A program made the position numbers and the translations under genes. This document shows positions 1,964-19,539 of a stretch of DNA of 39,195 nucleotides, piece after piece. Source of the DNA: Escherichia phage JEP4; sequence record MT740315.1; one strand, 5' to 3'. The notes below the pieces were generated by a model that was not told the DNA's origin, searched no databases, and was given only the letters and a program-made list of their open reading frames with translations. Position 1 is the stretch's first letter. Each line of letters opens with the position of its first letter.

Positions 1964-4164
1964 TGGCTGATGATAGAAAGATGACTGACTGGCATCGCAA
2001 GGTGCTGTGCAACTTTGATAATGCCTGGTCAGCAACGCAGGATATGCGAGAGCAGATTATTGAGGCTCAACGTTTCGTCCGGGTGTCCGGCGCACAGTGG
2101 GAAGGCAGCACAAACGCTGGTTACTCATTTGATGAAGGCAGGTTTGAGCATTATCCGCGCTTTGAACTGAATAAGATTGCCCGTGAATGTGATCGCATCA
2201 TTGGCGAGTATCGACAGAATCGCATCAGCGTTAAATTCAGGCCGAAGGATGACAAGGCATCGGAAGCGTTAGCCGAAAAGATGAACGGCAAATTCCGCGC
2301 TGACTATCAGGAAACATCCGGTGGCGAAGCGTGTGATAACGCATTTGATGATGCTGTAACGGGCGGATTCGGTTGTTTCCGCATGTGTGCCGATTACGAA
2401 GATGAAATGGACCCAAGTAACGAGCAGCGACGCATCAGCCTTCTTCCTGTTTACGACCCAGCGACATGCGTTTTCTTCGATCAGGACAGCAAGCAATATG
2501 ACCGCTCTGATGCTATGTGGGCTATGGAAATGTTCTCCATGACGCCTAAAGCGTTCGAGGCTGAATACCCTGATTCCATCGCGGCAAGCCTTTCTCGTGA
2601 TGACACTGGCACTCAATATGACTGGTCAACGCCAGATGCCATCTATGTTGGTCGCTACTACGAAGTTCGCATAGAGAAGGTGAAGCTCACGGCATGGCGC
2701 AACCCTGTTAGCGGAGAAACGGCAATTTATGATGAAGAGCAAATCAAAGATATTGTCGACGAGCTGACCGATGGTGCATTCGAACTGATTGGCGAGCGAA
2801 CGGTGAAGAAGCGCCGCGTTTATTGCGGTCTTCTGTCTGGCGCTGAATGGCTGGAAGAACCGAAGCGTATTCCGGGCGAACATATTCCTCTCATCCCGGT
2901 ATATGGGCGTCGATCATTTGTTGATAATCAGGAGCGAATCGAAGGTCACGCAGCAAAAGCGATGGATGCACAGCGTCTTGAGAACCTGATGGTTTCCATG
3001 ATTGCAGATAACGCTACTCAGGCTGGCGGTGATGGCATTCCTGTAGTTGATGTTGACATGATTCCTGGTCCTCTCGCCACTCATTGGGCGGAGCGCAACA
3101 AAAAGCGCCCGGCGTTCCTGCCGATGGTCAGTCTGAAAAACAAAAACGGAGATATTACTGCGCAGGCTCAGGTCAGCAGTTATACACCTCCGACACAAAT
3201 GCCTCCTGCTCTTGCCGGGCTATTGCAGTACACCGGAACGGCTATTCAGCAAATTACAGGTGCGTCGCAGCTTGAGAATATGCCGAGCAACGTCGCTACC
3301 GATACCGTTGATAGCATCTTTAACCGGATGGACACGCAGTCCTATATCTACATGGACAACATGGCTAAATCCATGCGCCGCGCTGGCGTCGTGTGGCTTT
3401 CTATGGCGCGTGAAGTCTATGGCAGCGATACGCCAATGCGCATCGTTAATGAGGACGGCAGCGATGACGTGGCGCTGATGACTGGTGAAGTGGTTGACCG
3501 TCAGACAGGGCAGGTTATCGCGCTTAACGACCTTTCGCAGGGTAACTATGAAGTGACTGTCGATGTCGGTCAGTCGTTCGCTACTCGCCGTGATGCAACG
3601 GTTAAGTCGTTACTTTCCATGCTGGCACTTATCCCACCAGGAACGCCGAAGCACGACCTTGTATCGTCGATGATTCTCGACAATATGGACGGCGAAGGGA
3701 TGGACGACCTGAAAGAATACAACCGCAATCAGTTGCTTCTGTCTGGAGTTATCAAGCCGAGAACGCCTGAAGAACAGCAGATGGTTGAACAGGCGAAACA
3801 ACAACAGGCCAGTCAGCCAGATCCGGCTATGGTTGCAGCGCAAGGTCAGCTTCTTGCTGGTCAGGCTGAATTGCAGAAAGCGCAGAACGAACAGGCAGCC
3901 ATTCAGGTTAAAGCATTCCAGGCACAGACTGATGCTCAGGTTGCAGCGGCAAATGTTGTGAAAATCCTCGCATCTGCCGATAGCCAGCAGAAATCTGATA
4001 TCCGCGAGGCTCTGAAACTGCTCGGACAGTTCCAGCAACAGCAAGGAGATAATGCCCGTGCTGATGCAGAGCTTGTCCTGAAAAGTCAGGCACAGGGCCA
4101 TGCGCAGCGCATGGACATCAGCAGCATCCTGCAAAAATCAACTCAGCAACAACCACAGCAGTAA
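1960..4164 (+). CDS. Portal protein (P22 gp1-like)
   Basis: About 735 aa; C-terminal Q/A-rich helical barrel region (PEEQQMVEQAKQQQASQPDPAMVAAQGQLLAGQAELQKAQNEQ) as in P22 portal; ATGA overlap with TerL stop; ORF-track start 1948 is probably an upstream extension. Confidence 0.9.
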   Translation: MMADDRKMTDWHRKVLCNFDNAWSATQDMREQIIEAQRFVRVSGAQWEGSTNAGYSFDEGRFEHYPRFELNKIARECDRIIGEYRQNRISVKFRPKDDKASEALAEKMNGKFRADYQETSGGEACDNAFDDAVTGGFGCFRMCADYEDEMDPSNEQRRISLLPVYDPATCVFFDQDSKQYDRSDAMWAMEMFSMTPKAFEAEYPDSIAASLSRDDTGTQYDWSTPDAIYVGRYYEVRIEKVKLTAWRNPVSGETAIYDEEQIKDIVDELTDGAFELIGERTVKKRRVYCGLLSGAEWLEEPKRIPGEHIPLIPVYGRRSFVDNQERIEGHAAKAMDAQRLENLMVSMIADNATQAGGDGIPVVDVDMIPGPLATHWAERNKKRPAFLPMVSLKNKNGDITAQAQVSSYTPPTQMPPALAGLLQYTGTAIQQITGASQLENMPSNVATDTVDSIFNRMDTQSYIYMDNMAKSMRRAGVVWLSMAREVYGSDTPMRIVNEDGSDDVALMTGEVVDRQTGQVIALNDLSQGNYEVTVDVGQSFATRRDATVKSLLSMLALIPPGTPKHDLVSSMILDNMDGEGMDDLKEYNRNQLLLSGVIKPRTPEEQQMVEQAKQQQASQPDPAMVAAQGQLLAGQAELQKAQNEQAAIQVKAFQAQTDAQVAAANVVKILASADSQQKSDIREALKLLGQFQQQQGDNARADAELVLKSQAQGHAQRMDISSILQKSTQQQPQQ

Positions 4165-4254
4165 TTAACCCATAACGTGCAATGGCTGTCTTTATGAGGC
4201 CTGGCACCCTATTGCCTTCCGATGGGCTGAACATCGAGTAAACAGGGGTAACAA

Positions 4255-12001: not shown

Positions 12002-13866
12002 TGGCTAAAGCATGGAAAGATGTTATCGCCTCTCCACAGTATCAGGCGTTAACTGAAGAACAGAAAGCACAGGCTCAAGCGCAATATTTTGATGAGGTTG
12101 TTGCCCCTAAGGCTGGTGACAAATGGGCTGAAGCAAGAGATCAGTTTTATGCAGCATACCCTCCACCTCAGCAGCAGAAAGAAGAACCATCATTGATGCA
12201 ACAAGCTGGCGATTGGCTCACTGGTGGTCAAAGTGCAGGGCAAATTGCAGAGCAGGCTGGTCGCGGTCTGGTAAACATACCATTTGACGTATTGCAGGGT
12301 GGCGCAAGTCTGATTAATGCAATCAGTCAGGGGCTTGGTGGGCCAAAAGTATTGGATGATGTTTATCGTCCAGTAGACAGACCGACAGACCCCTACGCGC
12401 AAGCTGGAGAAACAATTGGCGGGTATTTAGTTCCAGGAGTTGGAACGGCAGGAAGCATGGCTATTGGATCACTGGCAGAGGCCGCAAACCAGAAAGGTGA
12501 TTTCGCGCAAAATGCAGCCATAAATGCCGGAGTTAACCTTGCCGCTCAGGGGGTTCTTTCCGCAGCAGCAAAGGGAATAGGGCGTGGAATTACTGCTGTT
12601 CGTGGCGAAATATCACCAGCAGATCAGCAATTGCTCAAGCGTGCCGCTGCGGCAGATGTACCAGTTATGACATCGGATGTAGTTCCTCCAAAAACAAAAC
12701 TTGGCAATCAACTGCAGGGTTACTCAGAAGGAGTCATAGCTGGGACTGGACCAATGAGAGCCGCACAGCAGGATGCTAGAACCAAGCTTGTTAATCGCTT
12801 CACCGAAAAATACGGCGACTACGATCCATCTGTAGTCGTTGATAGTCTAAAGTCAGGCGTTGCAAGGGAAAAATCGTTAGCCAAGTCAAAACTAAACAAC
12901 CTGTCAGGAAGAATGGTTGGAAAGCCAGTTGATACAAGTGGCGCCATAAGAGCTATCGACGGAGCAGTAAACGAACTTGGGAAACTTAAAGGTGTTTCTG
13001 ACACCCAGACCATTTCTGCGCTTAATGATTATAAGAATGCCATTCAGGAGATAACAAATGGAGATGATGCCTTTGAGTTACTTGATAAGCTGAGAACTCA
13101 GTTCCGCATTGACGTAAAAGGCGATCGTACAGTTCTGCCATCAATGTCGCAAACAATGGTCGACAGGGTCTACAACTCGCTAACCAATAGCCTTAGTAAA
13201 TCTATAGCGAAAGGACTTAGCCCAAAAGATGCTTCAGCATGGAGAGCGGGAAAAGCTGATTATGCAAAAATGGCAACACATGCAACTCAAACGCGCCTTA
13301 AAAACGTTCTAAATAAAGGAGATTTAACTCCCGAGGCTGTAAATACCATTGTGTATGGACAATATGGGTCAGATATAGCTCGATTGTACGGGAAACTCGA
13401 TCAAAAAGGTAAAGACATGCTAAGGGCGGCATATATCAGCAAAATAGCTGACAAGGTAGGTGACAGCCCTCAGAAAATGATGACCGAGCTTGGCAAGCTG
13501 CAAAAACAAGCAAATGGTCAGGTGTTTAAAACTGTATTTGGTGGGAAGAACGGAAAAGAGATAGAGGGGATGTTATCTATTCTCGATGCTACCAAAAGAG
13601 CATCTGAGGCTAATGTTGTGACGAAGACTGGCATGACACTCGCGCCTTTGGTAAGGGTTATTGGTAACCTAAAAACCGGAGGCGCGCTATTGGCTGGGGA
13701 AACAGGGATTGGCCTTATGTCGAGGGTTTATGAAAGCCCTATGGCCAGGAATGCGCTCTTACGTCTGGCAAACACCAAAGCAGGAACGCCAGCCTATGAA
13801 AGAGCATTAAGTAACGCTGCAAATGCCATCAGACCGCTGCTTGCCACTGAGGCAACACAGCAGTGA
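12001..13866 (+). CDS. Ejection protein, gp16-like
   Basis: 621 aa; synteny; last gene of the virion block before the accessory island. Confidence 0.6.
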   Translation: MAKAWKDVIASPQYQALTEEQKAQAQAQYFDEVVAPKAGDKWAEARDQFYAAYPPPQQQKEEPSLMQQAGDWLTGGQSAGQIAEQAGRGLVNIPFDVLQGGASLINAISQGLGGPKVLDDVYRPVDRPTDPYAQAGETIGGYLVPGVGTAGSMAIGSLAEAANQKGDFAQNAAINAGVNLAAQGVLSAAAKGIGRGITAVRGEISPADQQLLKRAAAADVPVMTSDVVPPKTKLGNQLQGYSEGVIAGTGPMRAAQQDARTKLVNRFTEKYGDYDPSVVVDSLKSGVAREKSLAKSKLNNLSGRMVGKPVDTSGAIRAIDGAVNELGKLKGVSDTQTISALNDYKNAIQEITNGDDAFELLDKLRTQFRIDVKGDRTVLPSMSQTMVDRVYNSLTNSLSKSIAKGLSPKDASAWRAGKADYAKMATHATQTRLKNVLNKGDLTPEAVNTIVYGQYGSDIARLYGKLDQKGKDMLRAAYISKIADKVGDSPQKMMTELGKLQKQANGQVFKTVFGGKNGKEIEGMLSILDATKRASEANVVTKTGMTLAPLVRVIGNLKTGGALLAGETGIGLMSRVYESPMARNALLRLANTKAGTPAYERALSNAANAIRPLLATEATQQ

Positions 13867-14072: not shown

Positions 14073-14132
14073 ACCAACCTCCTTAGTTTTGAGCAGGATA
14101 CCAGATGATAATGTGTCGCCTCCTAAAGGATA

Positions 14133-14774
14133 TCAAAGCAACGGGATTTCAAGGTAAACTGCGGTTGCCAAAATACTAACATCTTCATTTCTAACAAGAA
14201 TATTAGGATACATTGGGTTTAGGGATACTAGGTTTGTCTCTATTTCACCAATGTAAACCTGTTTGAAGCTCAATATTTGCTCTTTATCCAATGATGCTAT
14301 TACATAATCTTTGCTTTTAGCTTTTACTAGAGGGCTGAACGTGACAACCGATCCTCTGGGAAAGCTAATACCTGAACTTGTAGTCATAGCTTCACCTTCA
14401 ATAGTCAATGCAAATGCAGAGTCACCAACATTGTATATTGCAGGATGAAATCTAGACGATGAATGTTCACCTGTGTTTAGGTAATGCATAACTTCATCTA
14501 GTTTGAGAATTGGTATTTGCTTTACCAGAACGTCAGGCATGACGTTTTTTGTTCCCGGACCCTGACCTTCACCTAGAGCTAACCACTCAGCCGTAGTACC
14601 TAATGCGTTGGCTAATGCCTGCAATACCCGAAGCCGTGGTTTAGCCTCACCACCCTCGTATGCAGCTATTTGACGTTGAACAACACCAGCTAATTTTGAC
14701 AACTGCGCCTGCGTCATACCCCTGGACTGTCTTGCCAGAGATACTCTTGATGGGAATTGATCGTCAAAATTCAT
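14133..14774 (-). CDS. CI/LexA-like repressor: HTH_XRE N-domain plus degenerate S24 peptidase-like C-domain
   Basis: N-terminal HTH (GMTQAQLSKLAGVVQRQIAAYEGG); C-domain aligns to the c2 S24 domain in this window but has GEAM where c2 has GDSM, with Lys retained (SFKQ vs TFKK). Confidence 0.8.
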   Translation of the reverse strand: MNFDDQFPSRVSLARQSRGMTQAQLSKLAGVVQRQIAAYEGGEAKPRLRVLQALANALGTTAEWLALGEGQGPGTKNVMPDVLVKQIPILKLDEVMHYLNTGEHSSSRFHPAIYNVGDSAFALTIEGEAMTTSSGISFPRGSVVTFSPLVKAKSKDYVIASLDKEQILSFKQVYIGEIETNLVSLNPMYPNILVRNEDVSILATAVYLEIPLL

Positions 14775-14795
14775 TAGTTCACCATAAAAAATTCA

Positions 14796-14824
14796 TTGAC
14801 TCATACTGAGTGTGAGTGAATAAT
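14796..14824 (+). promoter_or_regulatory. Candidate sigma70 promoter for the Arc-like/antirepressor operon
   Basis: TTGACT, 17-nt spacer, AATAAT, about 50 nt upstream of Arc-like ATG. Confidence 0.35.
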
Positions 14825-14873
14825 CAAACTACAAAAAGTGAGATTATGAGTTTTTCAAAAACAGGAGTGCATA

Positions 14874-15047
14874 ATGACTGAAAAGATATCTTCCATCAAG
14901 CCGCGTCAGGTTCGTTTTACAGAAAAGGTTGATTCACATATCCGCGAATCAGCAAAAAGATGCCATAGGTCAATTCAGGCAGAGATAGCTTATCGAATGG
15001 AGTTATTAATGAAACTTGAGGCAAAGGGCGATGTTGTCATCCAATAA
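14874..15047 (+). CDS. Arc-like ribbon-helix-helix repressor (57 aa; below ORF-track cutoff)
   Basis: Read directly: MTEKISSIKPRQVRFTEKVDSHIRESAKRCHRSIQAEIAYRMELLMKLEAKGDVVIQ; AGGAG SD 6 nt upstream of ATG; beta-strand plus two helices pattern of Arc/Mnt RHH family; first gene of operon. Confidence 0.6.
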   Translation: MTEKISSIKPRQVRFTEKVDSHIRESAKRCHRSIQAEIAYRMELLMKLEAKGDVVIQ

Positions 15048-15120
15048 AAATAGTGAAGCCCGGCAGTGCGCGAACACAAACCGGGCCTCTATGTCAGTAA
15101 CCGTACTCAAGGAAACTAAC

Positions 15121-15759
15121 ATGAATATTGTAGCAAAATCAGATTATAACTTCCAAGGATTCACTTTTAACCCTGTAACAGAGGGCGGGTCTATCTGGTT
15201 TACCTCCACCGAACTAGCTAAGGCTCTCGGCTATAAAAAAACTGATGCCATCAGCCAAATTTATGCCCGTAATGCTGACGAATTTTCCGACTCAATGTCA
15301 TTGACCCTCAATATGAAGGTCAACGGAATAAACAATAGCTTACGTAACAAATCGGTCAGAGTTTACTCACTCCGAGGCGCTCACTTGGTGGCGATGTTTG
15401 CTTCTACGCCCAAGGCCAAAGAGTTCCGCCGCTGGGTGCTGGATATTTTGGATCGGCAGGCAGAATGCTCACCGATTGCAAAACAGTTCACTGACGAAGA
15501 GCTGGTTAATCTCTGCTACTTACAATTGTGGATGGAGAAGAGTCAACAAATGTGCAAACACATCTACCCAGGAATGAAGCAAATTGGTTCTGAGCTTTCA
15601 GGAAGGATTTACGATATTGCATATGAGACTCGCTACATGTCAGAAGAAACCAAGAAATCACTTCTTCGTGAAATGAAGAATCTTGATACCAACAATTTTG
15701 TCGTAAAGAACGCTCAGCCAATGCTGGCAAAACTTCGCGGCGAGGAATGGATTCATTGA
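15121..15759 (+). CDS. Antirepressor-family protein with Bro-N domain
   Basis: Begins MNIVAKSDYNFQGFTFNPVTEGGSIWFTSTELAKALGY (Bro-N-type); AAGGA SD; ORF-track start 15016 is an upstream extension overlapping the Arc-like gene. Confidence 0.75.
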   Translation: MNIVAKSDYNFQGFTFNPVTEGGSIWFTSTELAKALGYKKTDAISQIYARNADEFSDSMSLTLNMKVNGINNSLRNKSVRVYSLRGAHLVAMFASTPKAKEFRRWVLDILDRQAECSPIAKQFTDEELVNLCYLQLWMEKSQQMCKHIYPGMKQIGSELSGRIYDIAYETRYMSEETKKSLLREMKNLDTNNFVVKNAQPMLAKLRGEEWIH

Positions 15760-15846
15760 TTGGTGCGCCGGACTGCGCAAAAGAAAACCGCCAGTGTGCT
15801 GCTGGCGGCCTATGTCACACCCTTACTACCACATAAGGAATGCCTA

Positions 15847-16572
15847 ATGACTTTTAAGAATGTAGCAAACATCGGATCCGTTGTCACGGATAAAACCATT
15901 GACAGCCAAAGTCTTCTGATGATGGTTAATGAAGCTCGCAAGTTATGTGGAGAGCCATCAGTACGTAACAACAAATTCATCGAGAAAATTGAGGATGAAT
16001 TGGAAGGCGAGACCTACACAAAAAGTGTAGGTCGGAAAAACGGGGCTGACATTGATGTTATCTCCATGACTATCAAGCAGGCGCTTCGTGTTGCTGCTCG
16101 CGAATCTAAAGCAGTTCGCCGAACACTTGTAGACAAACTTGAAAGTATGCAGGAAGCGCACATTAAAAGCGGTAAATCAGCGAGTGGACTTGTTGAGTAT
16201 CGTCAAGCGCGAACATTGAAAATGACGGTTGAAGCTGTTACCAATCTGTTCGATCTGATGCCAAATCTTGCGCCGGAGGCAAAGCAGACAGCGGCAGCAA
16301 GTATAATCAACCCGCTCGTTGGTTTTAATGCAATACCTCTTCCGGCAATAGAAGAGCATTACTACTCAGCAGGGGAGGTTGCAGAGCAGCTTGGAGTAAC
16401 GGCCAACAAGATTGGTCGCATTGCTAACGCAAACAACCTCAAAACTGAGCAGTACGGGAAGTTCTTCCTGGATAAATCTGCGCATTCCAGCAAACAGGTG
16501 GAAGCGTTCCGCTACAATGAGGAAGGTGTTAAAGCACTACAACACCTTATTCATGGGAGTAATGTTGCATAA
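15847..16572 (+). CDS. Second antirepressor-like protein (Rha/ANT-like)
   Basis: 241 aa from ATG 15847 with AAGGAA SD; N-terminus resembles the Rha-type N-domain of the 33188 gene; domain call from recalled patterns only. Confidence 0.55.
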   Translation: MTFKNVANIGSVVTDKTIDSQSLLMMVNEARKLCGEPSVRNNKFIEKIEDELEGETYTKSVGRKNGADIDVISMTIKQALRVAARESKAVRRTLVDKLESMQEAHIKSGKSASGLVEYRQARTLKMTVEAVTNLFDLMPNLAPEAKQTAAASIINPLVGFNAIPLPAIEEHYYSAGEVAEQLGVTANKIGRIANANNLKTEQYGKFFLDKSAHSSKQVEAFRYNEEGVKALQHLIHGSNVA

Positions 16573-16793
16573 TGGCAAAGAAAAAATATGGCATTATGCC
16601 GCCAAGAATCAAAGGAAGAGCCAGGGTAAAAGGCGATGCTGGAAGGTATCACATTCTTGGAGTTCTGTGGCATGAGAGAGCTTTAATTTTAAGTAGGCCT
16701 CATGGGTACATTGAAAAGGTATCTATAGATAGAGTAGAGATTCTTCCCCTTACACCTGAAGAAGAAGAAACGTACGGACTTTTTGATAACTAA
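16572..16793 (+). CDS. Hypothetical protein (73 aa), last gene of antirepressor operon
   Basis: TAATG start/stop overlap with upstream gene; followed by terminator. Confidence 0.45.
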   Translation: MAKKKYGIMPPRIKGRARVKGDAGRYHILGVLWHERALILSRPHGYIEKVSIDRVEILPLTPEEEETYGLFDN

Positions 16794-16802
16794 CCAACTA
16801 AA

Positions 16803-16824
16803 CCCGCTTAATCGCGGGTTTTTT
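16803..16824 (+). terminator. Rho-independent terminator closing the antirepressor operon
   Basis: CCCGC-ttaatc-GCGGG followed by TTTTTT; hairpin overlaps the last codons of the convergent mnt homolog. Confidence 0.6.
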
Positions 16825-17065
16825 CTTTTCTAAGGATATCAGCCGCAACTTCTTTTACTCGTTCCGAGATTAATGAGTCCAGCCTCTCTTCTTCATCACG
16901 ATACCCGCTTACAGGTGATGGTTTGGAGAGTGATTCTTCCATCGTAGCCACAATTTCGGAATTGATAGACCTGTTATTCATTTTTGCACGCTGCTTAATC
17001 TTAGCGTGCAACTCGTGCGTAAGCCTCAAGTGGAACTGCGCCTCATCGTATTTGCTGTACATCAT
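16808..17065 (-). CDS. mnt: Mnt-like RHH repressor
   Basis: RHH core FHLRLTHELHAKIKQRAKMNNRSINSEIVATMEESL and tail SKPSPVSGYRDEEERL match recalled P22 Mnt (GRSMNSELLQIVQDALSKPSPVTGYRNDAERL); start at MMYSK with GGTGAGG SD; ORF-track 17146 start is an extension. Confidence 0.8.
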   Translation of the reverse strand: MMYSKYDEAQFHLRLTHELHAKIKQRAKMNNRSINSEIVATMEESLSKPSPVSGYRDEEERLDSLISERVKEVAADILRKEKTRD

Positions 17066-17481
17066 CAATGCCTCACCAAATGGGTGGAATGGCATCGTAA
17101 AACCTACTGTACAAATCAACAATCGTACCGTTTCGGTATGTAACAAATGCTCACCGTAGCCATGCTGCGGCGATTCCTTGTATCTGGAGCAAATTAAATG
17201 ACAGATATTATAAATAGGAATTGTTATTTAATAATGTTTGAAAATAAAAATCATGGACGATAGGAATAAAGGTATTACTTGTTTTTATTTTTGTAAGTGA
17301 CGCATTAAGCGCATAAATAATATGCCTGTTGATCAAGATTCTTGAGTATTGTAAAATAATCGTTTTGTTCATGTTGCATGGTTTTTAAATGAATAGAAGG
17401 TTATTTTTCAAAACAATTGCATCTTTGTCTGCAGTCATTCCGTTTTCTTCAATATCTAAATCTTCAAACAGGATGACTAAT

Positions 17482-19539
17482 ATGCCTGATATAACCCCAA
17501 ATGTTGTAATTGGGATGCCATCGCAACTCTTCACAATGGCTAGCTCTTTTAAAACCGTAGCAAATGGAAAAATTTATATCGGTAAGATTGACACAGATCC
17601 GGTAAATCCAGAAAACCAGATTCCAGTATATCTGGAACGAGAAGATGGTACTTATGTTCAGGTGCCACAGCCAATCGTTATCAATGCTGCTGGATACCCG
17701 GTATACAACGGACAGATTTCCAAATTCGTTACCGTGCAAGGCCATTCTATGGCTGTTTACGATGCATATGGTACGCAGCAGTTCTATTTTCCGAATGTGC
17801 TGAAATACGACCCGGATCAGTTAAGACAAGAGTTAGCAACAGAGGGTAATGAAATACTTGTTGACGACTCCCGTATTGCAGTTAAAAGTGTTCATGTAAA
17901 TTCAAAACTTAGAACACAGCACAATAAAAACGCAGAAATAATCACGCCAAATGATTTTATATCAAATTATGACATGATATCTGCAGCTATTAACTCTGGA
18001 GAGAGTGCCGCAGTATTTAATTCCAGGTATGCATTCACAATAACAGTTGGGGAATATGGTAATTTTAAATCTATTAGTGATGCTCTAAACTCAGCTGTTG
18101 CACTGCGTCCACTATGGAAAAATGGCATTGATTTTTGCATAATTAAAATTCTTTCCGGTTTTGTGCTCAATGAGCAAATAGAAATTTCAGCAGGATGTGA
18201 CTTATCATGGATTAAAATAATATCAGAAGACTCAGTGGTTTTCTCTGATACCAGTTTGTTTACTAAAACTGTTAGGACGTATTACGAATACAAATATTTA
18301 TTTTACATTTGCGATGCAGCAAAAAGTCCTGTATTTGCTATTCAGATTGAAGAAAATAGAGATGATAGCGATGTTTGTGCATTTATTGTAACTCAAAAAG
18401 CTGAACTTAATTTCTATCCGTATTCAGGTGCTCGAAAGTTCTACGTTGGAATTCATGGTAGTTTTGGTGCAAAAATTAGTGCATATCATACCGGATGTGC
18501 TCCTGATGAGGAAAGTGTTGCTGCATATATGCCAGAAGGGTATTACGTATGTGATTTTTCTTATAGCAGATACTCTTCCCTGCAACTGGTAAATAATGTC
18601 AAGGCATCAATGCCTGTAAGCAAGTTTGAACGGTGCACAGAGAGTACGGTTGCGTCAGTTAATTGTATTTATAATGTTAAAGCAGATTTTCAGGGGTCAA
18701 GTGCAAGCTATTGTTATATAGGATGGAATGTAAGAGATGGTTCAAATGTTAATATACGCGACCATAAAACTATACATTGCTCATATCGTGGATTAACCTG
18801 CATTCATACAGCATATGTTGATGCAAGACGACATGACGTTGAAGAAAGTGATGCAGAAACAAGTGGTAAAGTCCTTGAACCAAATATTGAAAAAGGTTTT
18901 TATGGATGTGCACTTGGTGTGCGTATTGATGGTGCGGGTTGTGTTGATGTTGCTGGTAATGATATGCGCAATTGTGGAACAGCCGTTAATGCAGACACTG
19001 GTGCTGTTATTTCAGGAAAAGCTGTAGATATCTCAGGGGCTGAGTTGGGATTTGATTGCCATGCAGGAGCATCTGTTAATTTTCCAAGGCTATGGGGTAC
19101 AGATATAAAAAAATTAATGCACCTCCAAGATGGTGTAAGGTTTAACTCTAATATTTGTCATGTATTTGGTGCAAATCCCACAAAAGATATTAGATGGATT
19201 GATGTAGAGAGATCTGAAGCTTCTTTTATGAATGCAACGCTGGATGCAGATTCAGGATTTATTGCTGACTGTGGTAGTAGGATAACCATTGAAGGAAGTA
19301 AAGTTAAAAACCAAACAATAAGAAGTTTTTTTGGATCACATGTGGCTATAAATAATACTGTTGCTGACAGAACTTATTCAGATATAGCCGATGTTCCGCA
19401 GTTGACTATTAGTGGAGGATCTTTTATTTCTGCTACAGGATATTCTAATTCTGACTCCAGCCCTCTTAGGTTGAGCACAACACGAAATACACTTGGAGTT
19501 GGAGGAGCCATATTTTCAACCAATGGGGAAGTTTCATGA
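17482..19539 (+). CDS. Tailspike protein: P22-family head-binding N-domain plus divergent receptor-binding domain
   Basis: N-terminus MPDITPNVVIGMPSQLFTMASSFKTVANGKIYIGKIDTDPVNPENQIPVY matches the P22 gp9 head-binding domain pattern; remainder is AT-rich and unrelated to my recollection of P22 gp9; ORF-track start 17389 is an extension. Confidence 0.85.
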   Translation: MPDITPNVVIGMPSQLFTMASSFKTVANGKIYIGKIDTDPVNPENQIPVYLEREDGTYVQVPQPIVINAAGYPVYNGQISKFVTVQGHSMAVYDAYGTQQFYFPNVLKYDPDQLRQELATEGNEILVDDSRIAVKSVHVNSKLRTQHNKNAEIITPNDFISNYDMISAAINSGESAAVFNSRYAFTITVGEYGNFKSISDALNSAVALRPLWKNGIDFCIIKILSGFVLNEQIEISAGCDLSWIKIISEDSVVFSDTSLFTKTVRTYYEYKYLFYICDAAKSPVFAIQIEENRDDSDVCAFIVTQKAELNFYPYSGARKFYVGIHGSFGAKISAYHTGCAPDEESVAAYMPEGYYVCDFSYSRYSSLQLVNNVKASMPVSKFERCTESTVASVNCIYNVKADFQGSSASYCYIGWNVRDGSNVNIRDHKTIHCSYRGLTCIHTAYVDARRHDVEESDAETSGKVLEPNIEKGFYGCALGVRIDGAGCVDVAGNDMRNCGTAVNADTGAVISGKAVDISGAELGFDCHAGASVNFPRLWGTDIKKLMHLQDGVRFNSNICHVFGANPTKDIRWIDVERSEASFMNATLDADSGFIADCGSRITIEGSKVKNQTIRSFFGSHVAINNTVADRTYSDIADVPQLTISGGSFISATGYSNSDSSPLRLSTTRNTLGVGGAIFSTNGEVS

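Follow-up and report, generated by a model that had tools for sequence, protein, structure and literature searches.

The question raised by this locus is what a Mnt-type repressor acts on when its gene lies beside the tailspike gene and converges on the antirepressor operon. The window analysed here, 39,195 nucleotides of Escherichia phage JEP4 (record MT740315.1), is an E. coli P22-like (Lederbergvirus-type) prophage by its surrounding genes: a gene 16 homologue ends at 13866, the tailspike gene starting at 17482 encodes a head-binding domain of P22 type, and an integrase is found further on. Several E. coli chromosomes match 14100-17500 at 100% identity and many others, E. coli HS among them, at 95-98%. 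An earlier note on this DNA had described the gene as an Mnt homologue displaced to a convergent position, with an unclear target. We consider that 16800-17140 is quite probably a self-contained orphan Mnt cassette, autoregulatory through an operator of its own, and not the repressor of the operon transcribed from the 14796 promoter. The cassette would comprise the repressor gene, its own sigma-70 promoter, a 17-bp dyad abutting the -35 hexamer and a terminator overlapping the stop codon (Table 1).

Table 1. Features of the putative mnt cassette and its surroundings in the window
Feature	Position	Strand	Basis or remark
Separate antirepressor cassette	14133..16793	.	present, absent or swapped beside the same mnt
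cI-like HTH/S24 repressor	14133-14774	-	
Promoter TTGACT-17-AATAAT	14796-14824	+	
57-aa ribbon-helix-helix gene (RHH57)	14874-15047		first gene of the operon
Bro-N/P22AR_C antirepressor	15121-15759		
241-aa ORF	15847-16572		
orf73	16572-16793		
Predicted rho-independent terminator	16800..16829	+ (late-operon direction)	fold calculation; equivalents in relatives
mnt homologue	16808..17065	-	ORF list, Pfam Arc, PDB 1MNT, PGAP, dN/dS
Shine-Dalgarno-like GGTGAGG for mnt	17071..17077	-	read from sequence
Predicted Pmnt -10, TACGAT	17094..17099	-	position homologous to annotated P22 Pmnt -10, TATCAT
Predicted Pmnt -35, TTGTTG	17117..17122	-	17-nt spacer to -10
Predicted Mnt operator, 17-bp imperfect dyad CGTACCGTTTCGGTATG	17124..17140	.	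centre 17132; one base off the -35 hexamer
'Boundary sequence' and tailspike 5' leader	17151..17197	+	hairpin 17154-17170, original tailspike Shine-Dalgarno GGAG
Relic of original tailspike start, ATGACAGATATT = MTDI	17198..17209	+	identical to tailspike start in P22, VSe13, Gally
AT-rich insert, 27% GC, 272 bp	17210..17481	.	outside the mnt cassette
Current tailspike gene	17482..19539	+	start per PGAP in an identical genome

The stop codon of mnt (TAA) occupies 16808-16810 and the coding sequence 16811-17065, which gives 85 amino acids counted from the first of two ATG codons (17065 and 17062); RefSeq/PGAP uses the second. The span given in the earlier note, 16803-17065, is therefore correct at its right edge and runs 5 nt past the stop at its left. 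In an identical genome PGAP labels the product 'Arc family DNA-binding protein'. The protein matches Pfam Arc (PF03869) with an E value of 3.8e-15 and 55.9 bits (cut-off 20.4), and the best solved structure for it is P22 Mnt (1MNT, E 2.3e-15), residues 7-79 aligning with residues 3-75; both matches place a ribbon-helix-helix DNA-binding domain at the N-terminus. With P22 Mnt it may also share the helical C-terminal part that makes a tetramer of the protein, and the two proteins are 45% identical over 73 residues. The motifs that the earlier note had named, N-RS-NSE and SKPSPV-GYR, are both present in this alignment, which runs on through residues 56-79 (ERL...VK...L); the 85-aa length matches as well, and the last ~25 residues diverge. 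Identity reaches 95% with the VSe13 protein, 62-64% with those of Sf101 and IME10, and 48-56% with Mnt of ST64T and ST160. Weak matches to the HicB and FitA families overlap the Arc match. An antitoxin of a type II toxin-antitoxin system (HicB/FitA/ParD-like) was rejected, mnt being monocistronic between its promoter and terminator, with no toxin partner gene.

The median dN/dS of mnt is 0.09 (494 informative pairs), and the gene is intact in 74 of the 75 comparable genes, in agreement with the earlier reading that it is not a pseudogene. The sole pseudogenised relative, from Citrobacter (L006, ~3990-4252), has an in-frame stop (YSK*DE), and its operator core is also altered (TACT for TACC). 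We regard the gene, on this evidence, as a real and intact Mnt-type repressor homologue under purifying selection. The cassette occurs in Escherichia, Salmonella, Klebsiella, Citrobacter and Serratia hosts or contexts, and at least 80% of mnt with its intergenic region is present in ~64 of 5426 complete E. coli genomes. A protein search of genome contigs with Mnt returned three loci, namely the Citrobacter pseudogene, one in Serratia and one in an unrelated MAG.

To place the gene among its relatives, we compared 80 IMG/VR loci with mnt relatives, several phage records and the three genome loci, onto which mnt, the tailspike N-terminus, gene 16 and the antirepressor-operon genes of the window were mapped. 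In ~78 of 87 loci mnt is divergent from the tailspike gene, at 118-146 bp from ATG to ATG (most commonly 132 or 135 bp), with neither arc nor ant between them; mnt is directly divergent from the tailspike gene in ST64T, ST160, Sf101, Gally and VSe13. The longer distances are all due to insertions: 1433 bp in P22 (arc-ant), 416 bp in the window, 665 bp in L011, L018 and L024, again after a relic tailspike start, 647 bp in L065, where a truncated ant and a P22-type ant terminator are found, and 258 bp in L084. On the side of mnt that faces away from the tailspike, 32 loci have no more than gene 16 or small genes of other kinds; the cI-like and RHH57 cassette (antirepressor, 241-aa ORF, with or without orf73) adjoins mnt in ~21, and in ~23 the same antirepressor genes follow, in a P22-like order, an Arc-like gene and another Mnt-like gene distinct from the first. 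The same mnt (96-99% identical at the amino acid level) thus adjoins three different types of neighbour.

The content between the gene 16 homologue and the tailspike gene accordingly varies among relatives, as in the 'ant moron', which is highly variable and of which ST64T and ST104 retain mnt alone (Villafane et al. 2008, PMC2629481); the same work describes in outline the position of mnt next to the tailspike gene. The comparison indicates that mnt has not moved, the tailspike-adjacent mnt forming part of a conserved frame around which the antirepressor genes vary, and that P22 is the variant, with arc-ant inserted between operator and tailspike. 'Displaced' is hence the wrong word for this gene. 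The positional conservation, clear from the aligned loci, removes an apparent anomaly, since the layout of the window is the common one in P22-like phages. The second Mnt-like gene (L011, 6040-6470, and ~23 other loci) has the β-strand ERFTVRMP, and such prophages carry two different Mnt-type repressors.

Among the described phages, the nearest in layout are ST64T, ST104, L, ST160 and Gally, in which a lone mnt lies ~135 bp upstream of the tailspike gene and diverges from it; its promoter and operator are arranged as in the window, and there is a terminator at its stop. Unlike the window, ST64T-type orphans belong to a Q-N-R class with AAGACCACNGTGGTCTT, their proteins being 48-56% identical to the window Mnt. 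Sf101, IME10 and VSe13 share the Q-H-R class (62-95% identity), the operator type and the tailspike adjacency; they lack the cI-like/RHH57 antirepressor cassette 3' of mnt. E. coli HS carries the HS-1 ant moron (Villafane et al. 2008, PMC2629481, Fig. 3), which is 96% identical over 78% of 14100-17500 and is interrupted by an IS3. It differs from the window in that the latter has a swapped tailspike and an AT-rich insert, and in that arc is apparently absent in the published description, whereas the window operon opens with the 57-aa ribbon-helix-helix gene.

The earlier note had sought the mnt promoter in an AT-rich tract at 17066-17480. The tailspike side was correctly chosen, but the predicted promoter and operator (17094-17140) lie in the conserved 75 bp next to the mnt start, and the tract is not AT-rich throughout: 17066-17197, which is conserved and holds the mnt control region and the tailspike boundary sequence, has 44.7% GC, and only 17210-17481 is AT-rich. 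In the P22 record, Pmnt (TTGAGA-17-TATCAT), Pant (TTGACA-17-TATATT) and the Mnt operator are annotated, and the palindrome AGGTCCAC-G-GTGGACCT starts one base past the Pmnt -35 hexamer. In ST64T and ST160, TTGTGG-17-TATGAT is followed by one base and then by AAGACCACCGTGGTCTT. The geometry of the window equals that of P22 Pmnt/Omnt (-35 hexamer, 1 nt, 17-bp dyad), and the distance from the dyad centre to the mnt ATG is 67 nt, as against 66 in P22.

The upstream sequences of the window's Mnt class, 57 unique ones in alignment, are conserved from the mnt ATG to the operator and diverge freely past it. Their invariant blocks are the Shine-Dalgarno core (CCT), GCATCGT (-10), CAAT (-35 edge) and the TACC/GGTA core; the promoter hexamers, the Shine-Dalgarno sequence and the operator are kept amid diverging flanks in hosts of five genera (Escherichia, Salmonella, Serratia, Citrobacter and Klebsiella). 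A consensus promoter scan missed Pmnt, which falls below threshold with 3/6 matches in the -35 hexamer. Sf101-type relatives (Sf101 and IME10) and those of the L062 type have 15 nt between these hexamers, a poor spacing for sigma-70.

Symmetry in the candidate operator extends to 6/8 pairs, versus 8/8 in P22, a level reached by ~0.5% of all 17-mers of the window, so that the dyad alone is statistically unremarkable; a repeat search of 14760-14880 and 17060-17210 reported no short dyads, the arms being under 6 nt. More symmetric versions exist in some relatives (e.g. CATACCATTTTGGTATG). Because the dyad is not significant by itself, the case for an operator rests on positional homology and on the co-variation described below, and it is on these grounds that 17124-17140 is the likely target of Mnt. 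We infer that Mnt actually binds there and that transcription of mnt would start from the adjoining promoter. The target that the earlier note had left unclear is in this way narrowed to a predicted dyad at the position of P22 Omnt, and the comparison with Omnt that it had proposed reveals the same position, length and -35 spacing together with a different core (GGTCCAC-N-GTGGACC in P22, TACC-N5-GGTA in the window).

Elsewhere in the prophage the operator is absent. Even when up to 3 mismatches are allowed, CGTACCGTTTCGGTATG occurs in the 39-kb window only once, at 17124-17140, where it matches exactly, and the core with one mismatch gives six matches in the window, a chance level (5.3 expected). 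No operator-like sequence was found near the 14796 promoter, either at up to 3 mismatches in 17 or at one core mismatch, which agrees with the earlier failure to find a P22-type Omnt there. The P22-type immI switch is not seen in the window: the candidate operator overlaps no divergent arc-ant promoter, and the antirepressor promoter has no Mnt operator at up to 3 mismatches. Gene 16 of L011 (7732) and of 11 other loci contains a perfect palindrome, CTACCATATTGGTAG, which accounts for 12 of the 15 matches classed as 'OUTSIDE'; it is absent from the window and likely coincidental.

The specificity of Arc and Mnt is set by the N-terminal β-strand region (Knight & Sauer 1989, as related in PMC3325190). 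Among our loci, operator type follows the β-strand residues in 91 of 91 intact cases, which fall into three Mnt classes. The H-N-R strand, that of P22, goes with AGGTCCACGGTGGACC(T/C) (3/3 loci) and the Q-N-R strand with AAGACCACNGTGGTCT(T/C) (8/8 loci). The Q-H-R strand, that of the window, goes with a TACC-N5-GGTA core in 80/80 loci, one of them with a mutated core, the core itself being retained in 79 of the 80. Protein and operator evidently co-vary, and the window Mnt would represent a new, third specificity class within an arrangement that has already been diagrammed. A concrete operator and promoter can be proposed in this way for a widespread and unstudied Mnt class. Together with P22 and ST64T, this makes three natural protein/operator pairs usable for studying the reading of DNA by β-sheet repressors.

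At the other end of the gene, the predicted terminator has a stem of 16800-16807 and 16814-16821, a loop of 16808-16813 and a following T-run; its free energy is -12.4 kcal/mol (z = -3.8) and none of 200 shuffles folds as well. Its overlap with the mnt stop, pointed out in the earlier note, is borne out: the loop holds the stop codon and the Asp codon, and the right arm is made up of those for Arg and Thr. The hairpin reaches -13.8 kcal/mol on the mnt transcript but has a poorer U-tract after it. Equivalent hairpins exist at the mnt 3' end of P22, ST160, ST64T, Gally and epsilon34, and in the epsilon34 record the hairpin is annotated as a terminator. The overlap is family-wide and was already known from that annotation. 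The terminator would close the antirepressor operon and guard mnt against antisense readthrough.

That operon lies on the + strand and ends at 16793, and mnt converges on it, as the earlier note had stated. Since the same mnt may stand next to it, to a substitute or to none, we regard it as a cassette, to all appearances a mobile one with its own regulators. In the cI-like repressor GEAM replaces the GNSM of lambda cI, with alanine for the catalytic serine and the lysine position (FK) kept; the homologue of this repressor in L065 is 42% identical and has GDSM. The repressor of the window is probably non-cleavable and SOS-insensitive, doing the job that Mnt does in P22, and the 14796 operon is most likely controlled by this divergent repressor together with RHH57. 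RHH57 sits in the arc position and has a weak ParD-like Pfam match. Repeated TGAGT motifs, including ACTCAtacTGAGT at ~14800-14814, were seen by eye in the 14796 promoter region. The near-identical HS-1 moron is said to lack arc, apparently, and its antirepressor must be controlled differently from that of P22 (Villafane et al. 2008, PMC2629481).

The orphan cassette holds the standard site: of the variable ant moron, which spans the interval from gene 16 to gene 9, it takes the edge nearest the tailspike. The arc-ant slot between operator and tailspike is empty in the window, as it is in most related loci. At the position of P22 Pant, the rightward hexamers read ATGGCA-17-CAAATC in the window and TCGGCA-17-TATATC in ST64T; the -11 A and -7 T of the -10 hexamer never occur together in any variant among 57 unique relatives, and a promoter scan of 17066-17197 finds no rightward promoter. 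The Pant equivalent has decayed. Mnt, presumably a tetramer as in P22 and made from Pmnt in the lysogen, would bind its own dyad and in doing so regulate mnt itself; its effect is probably autoregulation. Vershon et al. are said to have found in 1987 that P22 Mnt at Omnt shuts Pant and thereby favours Pmnt. The annotated Mnt-protected region of P22 covers the -35 hexamer and, since Pant is gone here, dampening at high occupancy is the simplest expectation for the sign of the autoregulation, which we infer. Antiterminated late transcription would have to cross mnt and its terminator before reaching the tailspike gene, and the moron may thereby tune tailspike levels (Villafane et al., PMC2629481).

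Autoregulation with no other target does not explain the strong purifying selection on mnt, and a further target beyond its own promoter therefore probably exists. Mnt might repress a rightward promoter that would otherwise express the tailspike from the prophage, as the P22 operator overlaps the rightward Pant start, Pant transcripts can reach gene 9, and the tailspike gene is the next rightward gene in the window. However, decay of the Pant equivalent makes it unlikely that Mnt holds down such a promoter; with its hexamers defective in every orphan variant and no rightward promoter detected in the scan, we rejected this as the main reading and rate it as very improbable. The same decay, including the loss of the key final T of the -10 hexamer in all orphan types, could be taken to mean that gene and operator are functionless leftovers of a lost immI region, an option raised for phage L (PMC8022706) and one with which the ant fragments persisting in L065 and L084 and the single Citrobacter pseudogene would agree. 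A dN/dS of 0.09, 74 of 75 intact genes and control elements conserved across five host genera between diverging flanks argue against a remnant, and we give this view little credence. That Mnt still controls the 14796 operon, through a diverged or non-palindromic site, is barely credible: only the co-occurrence of the two in about half of the loci speaks for it, whereas that promoter has no operator-like sequence nearby and has its own divergent repressor and an Arc-like first gene, and Mnt occurs without the antirepressor cassette in 32 loci and beside a cassette with a second Mnt-like repressor in ~23.

A last proposal concerns only the benefit of the cassette and is compatible with its anatomy. 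In a lysogen, orphan Mnt would repress the antirepressor promoter of incoming P22-like phages with the same operator type and so keep a foreign antirepressor from inducing the resident prophage. Susskind and Botstein are said to have found that Mnt of a P22 lysogen represses ant of a superinfecting P22. The strong purifying selection on a gene whose own promoter is the only cis target fits such a role, and in L065 a Q-H-R-type operator is followed by a truncated P22-type ant and terminator, a sign that cognate phages once existed. Against it, an intact antirepressor behind a Q-H-R-type operator was not found in the 80 IMG/VR loci, 87 phage records and sampled E. coli genomes. In an IMG/VR operator scan, 40 of the 120 matches listed adjoin mnt and none of the remaining 80 adjoins ant: 79 of these fall in unrelated contigs, and the other (L184), next to a tailspike gene, is cut by a contig end; the matches listed neither support nor exclude the proposal, which we hold to be rather unlikely. 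Five unrelated IMG/VR contigs (L101, L108, L146, L162 and L199) carry the exact operator pattern twice, at a spacing of 515 bp, and none has a homologue of Mnt, the antirepressor or the tailspike close by; these are probably chance matches in a repeated gene segment.

We thus return to the autoregulatory orphan cassette as the preferred reading. The Q-H-R orphan Mnt, found in at least five enterobacterial genera with no cognate antirepressor, may serve a job beyond silencing its own ant, although we offer this only tentatively and with some doubt. Its benefit may be that it represses, in trans, immI promoters of the matching type on incoming phages, or that it adjusts the late transcription entering the tailspike gene. 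Why mnt is kept has already been raised as a question for phage L, its function there being acknowledged as unknown (PMC8022706). The present locus sharpens that question to why Mnt should be kept once its antirepressor is lost.

On the tailspike side, the boundary sequence has counterparts at the 5' border of the tailspike gene in many P22-like phages and in 721 of 5426 E. coli genomes, and is annotated as 'bsq1 boundary sequence' in CUS-3. Homology to most relatives stops at ~17210; among the matches listed, eight genomes (H25-H32) match through the AT-rich insert over the whole query and the others stop at ~17210. The AT-rich stretch 17210-17481 is best read as the scar of a tailspike replacement, unrelated to the mnt promoter. 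In P22 (L002, 1060-1225), the stretch from the ant terminator to gene 9 is flanked by a direct repeat, aaaattcaccgtagccaYgct, and holds a fragment that by eye resembles the window's 241-aa ORF (15993-16040; gagacctaca..aaa..tgtaggtcg), seen also in L084. The boundary sequence, as these comparisons suggest, may be a recurrent recombination joint.

The hairpin in the tailspike leader (17154-17170; CCGTAGC-CAT-GCTGCGG) is conserved; it was rejected as a terminator since no T-run follows it. In 20 diverse relatives two adjacent pairs alternate by sequence type between G-C/U-G and G-U/C-G, and at another pair both bases are exchanged (GC to UA); pairing is kept on the + (mRNA) strand only. Within the AT-rich insert there is a promoter-like TTGATC-17-TAAAAT at 17329-17357, and an in-frame ATG at 17389 would extend the tailspike by 31 aa, MNRRLFFKTIASLSAVIPFSS..., resembling a twin-arginine signal peptide.
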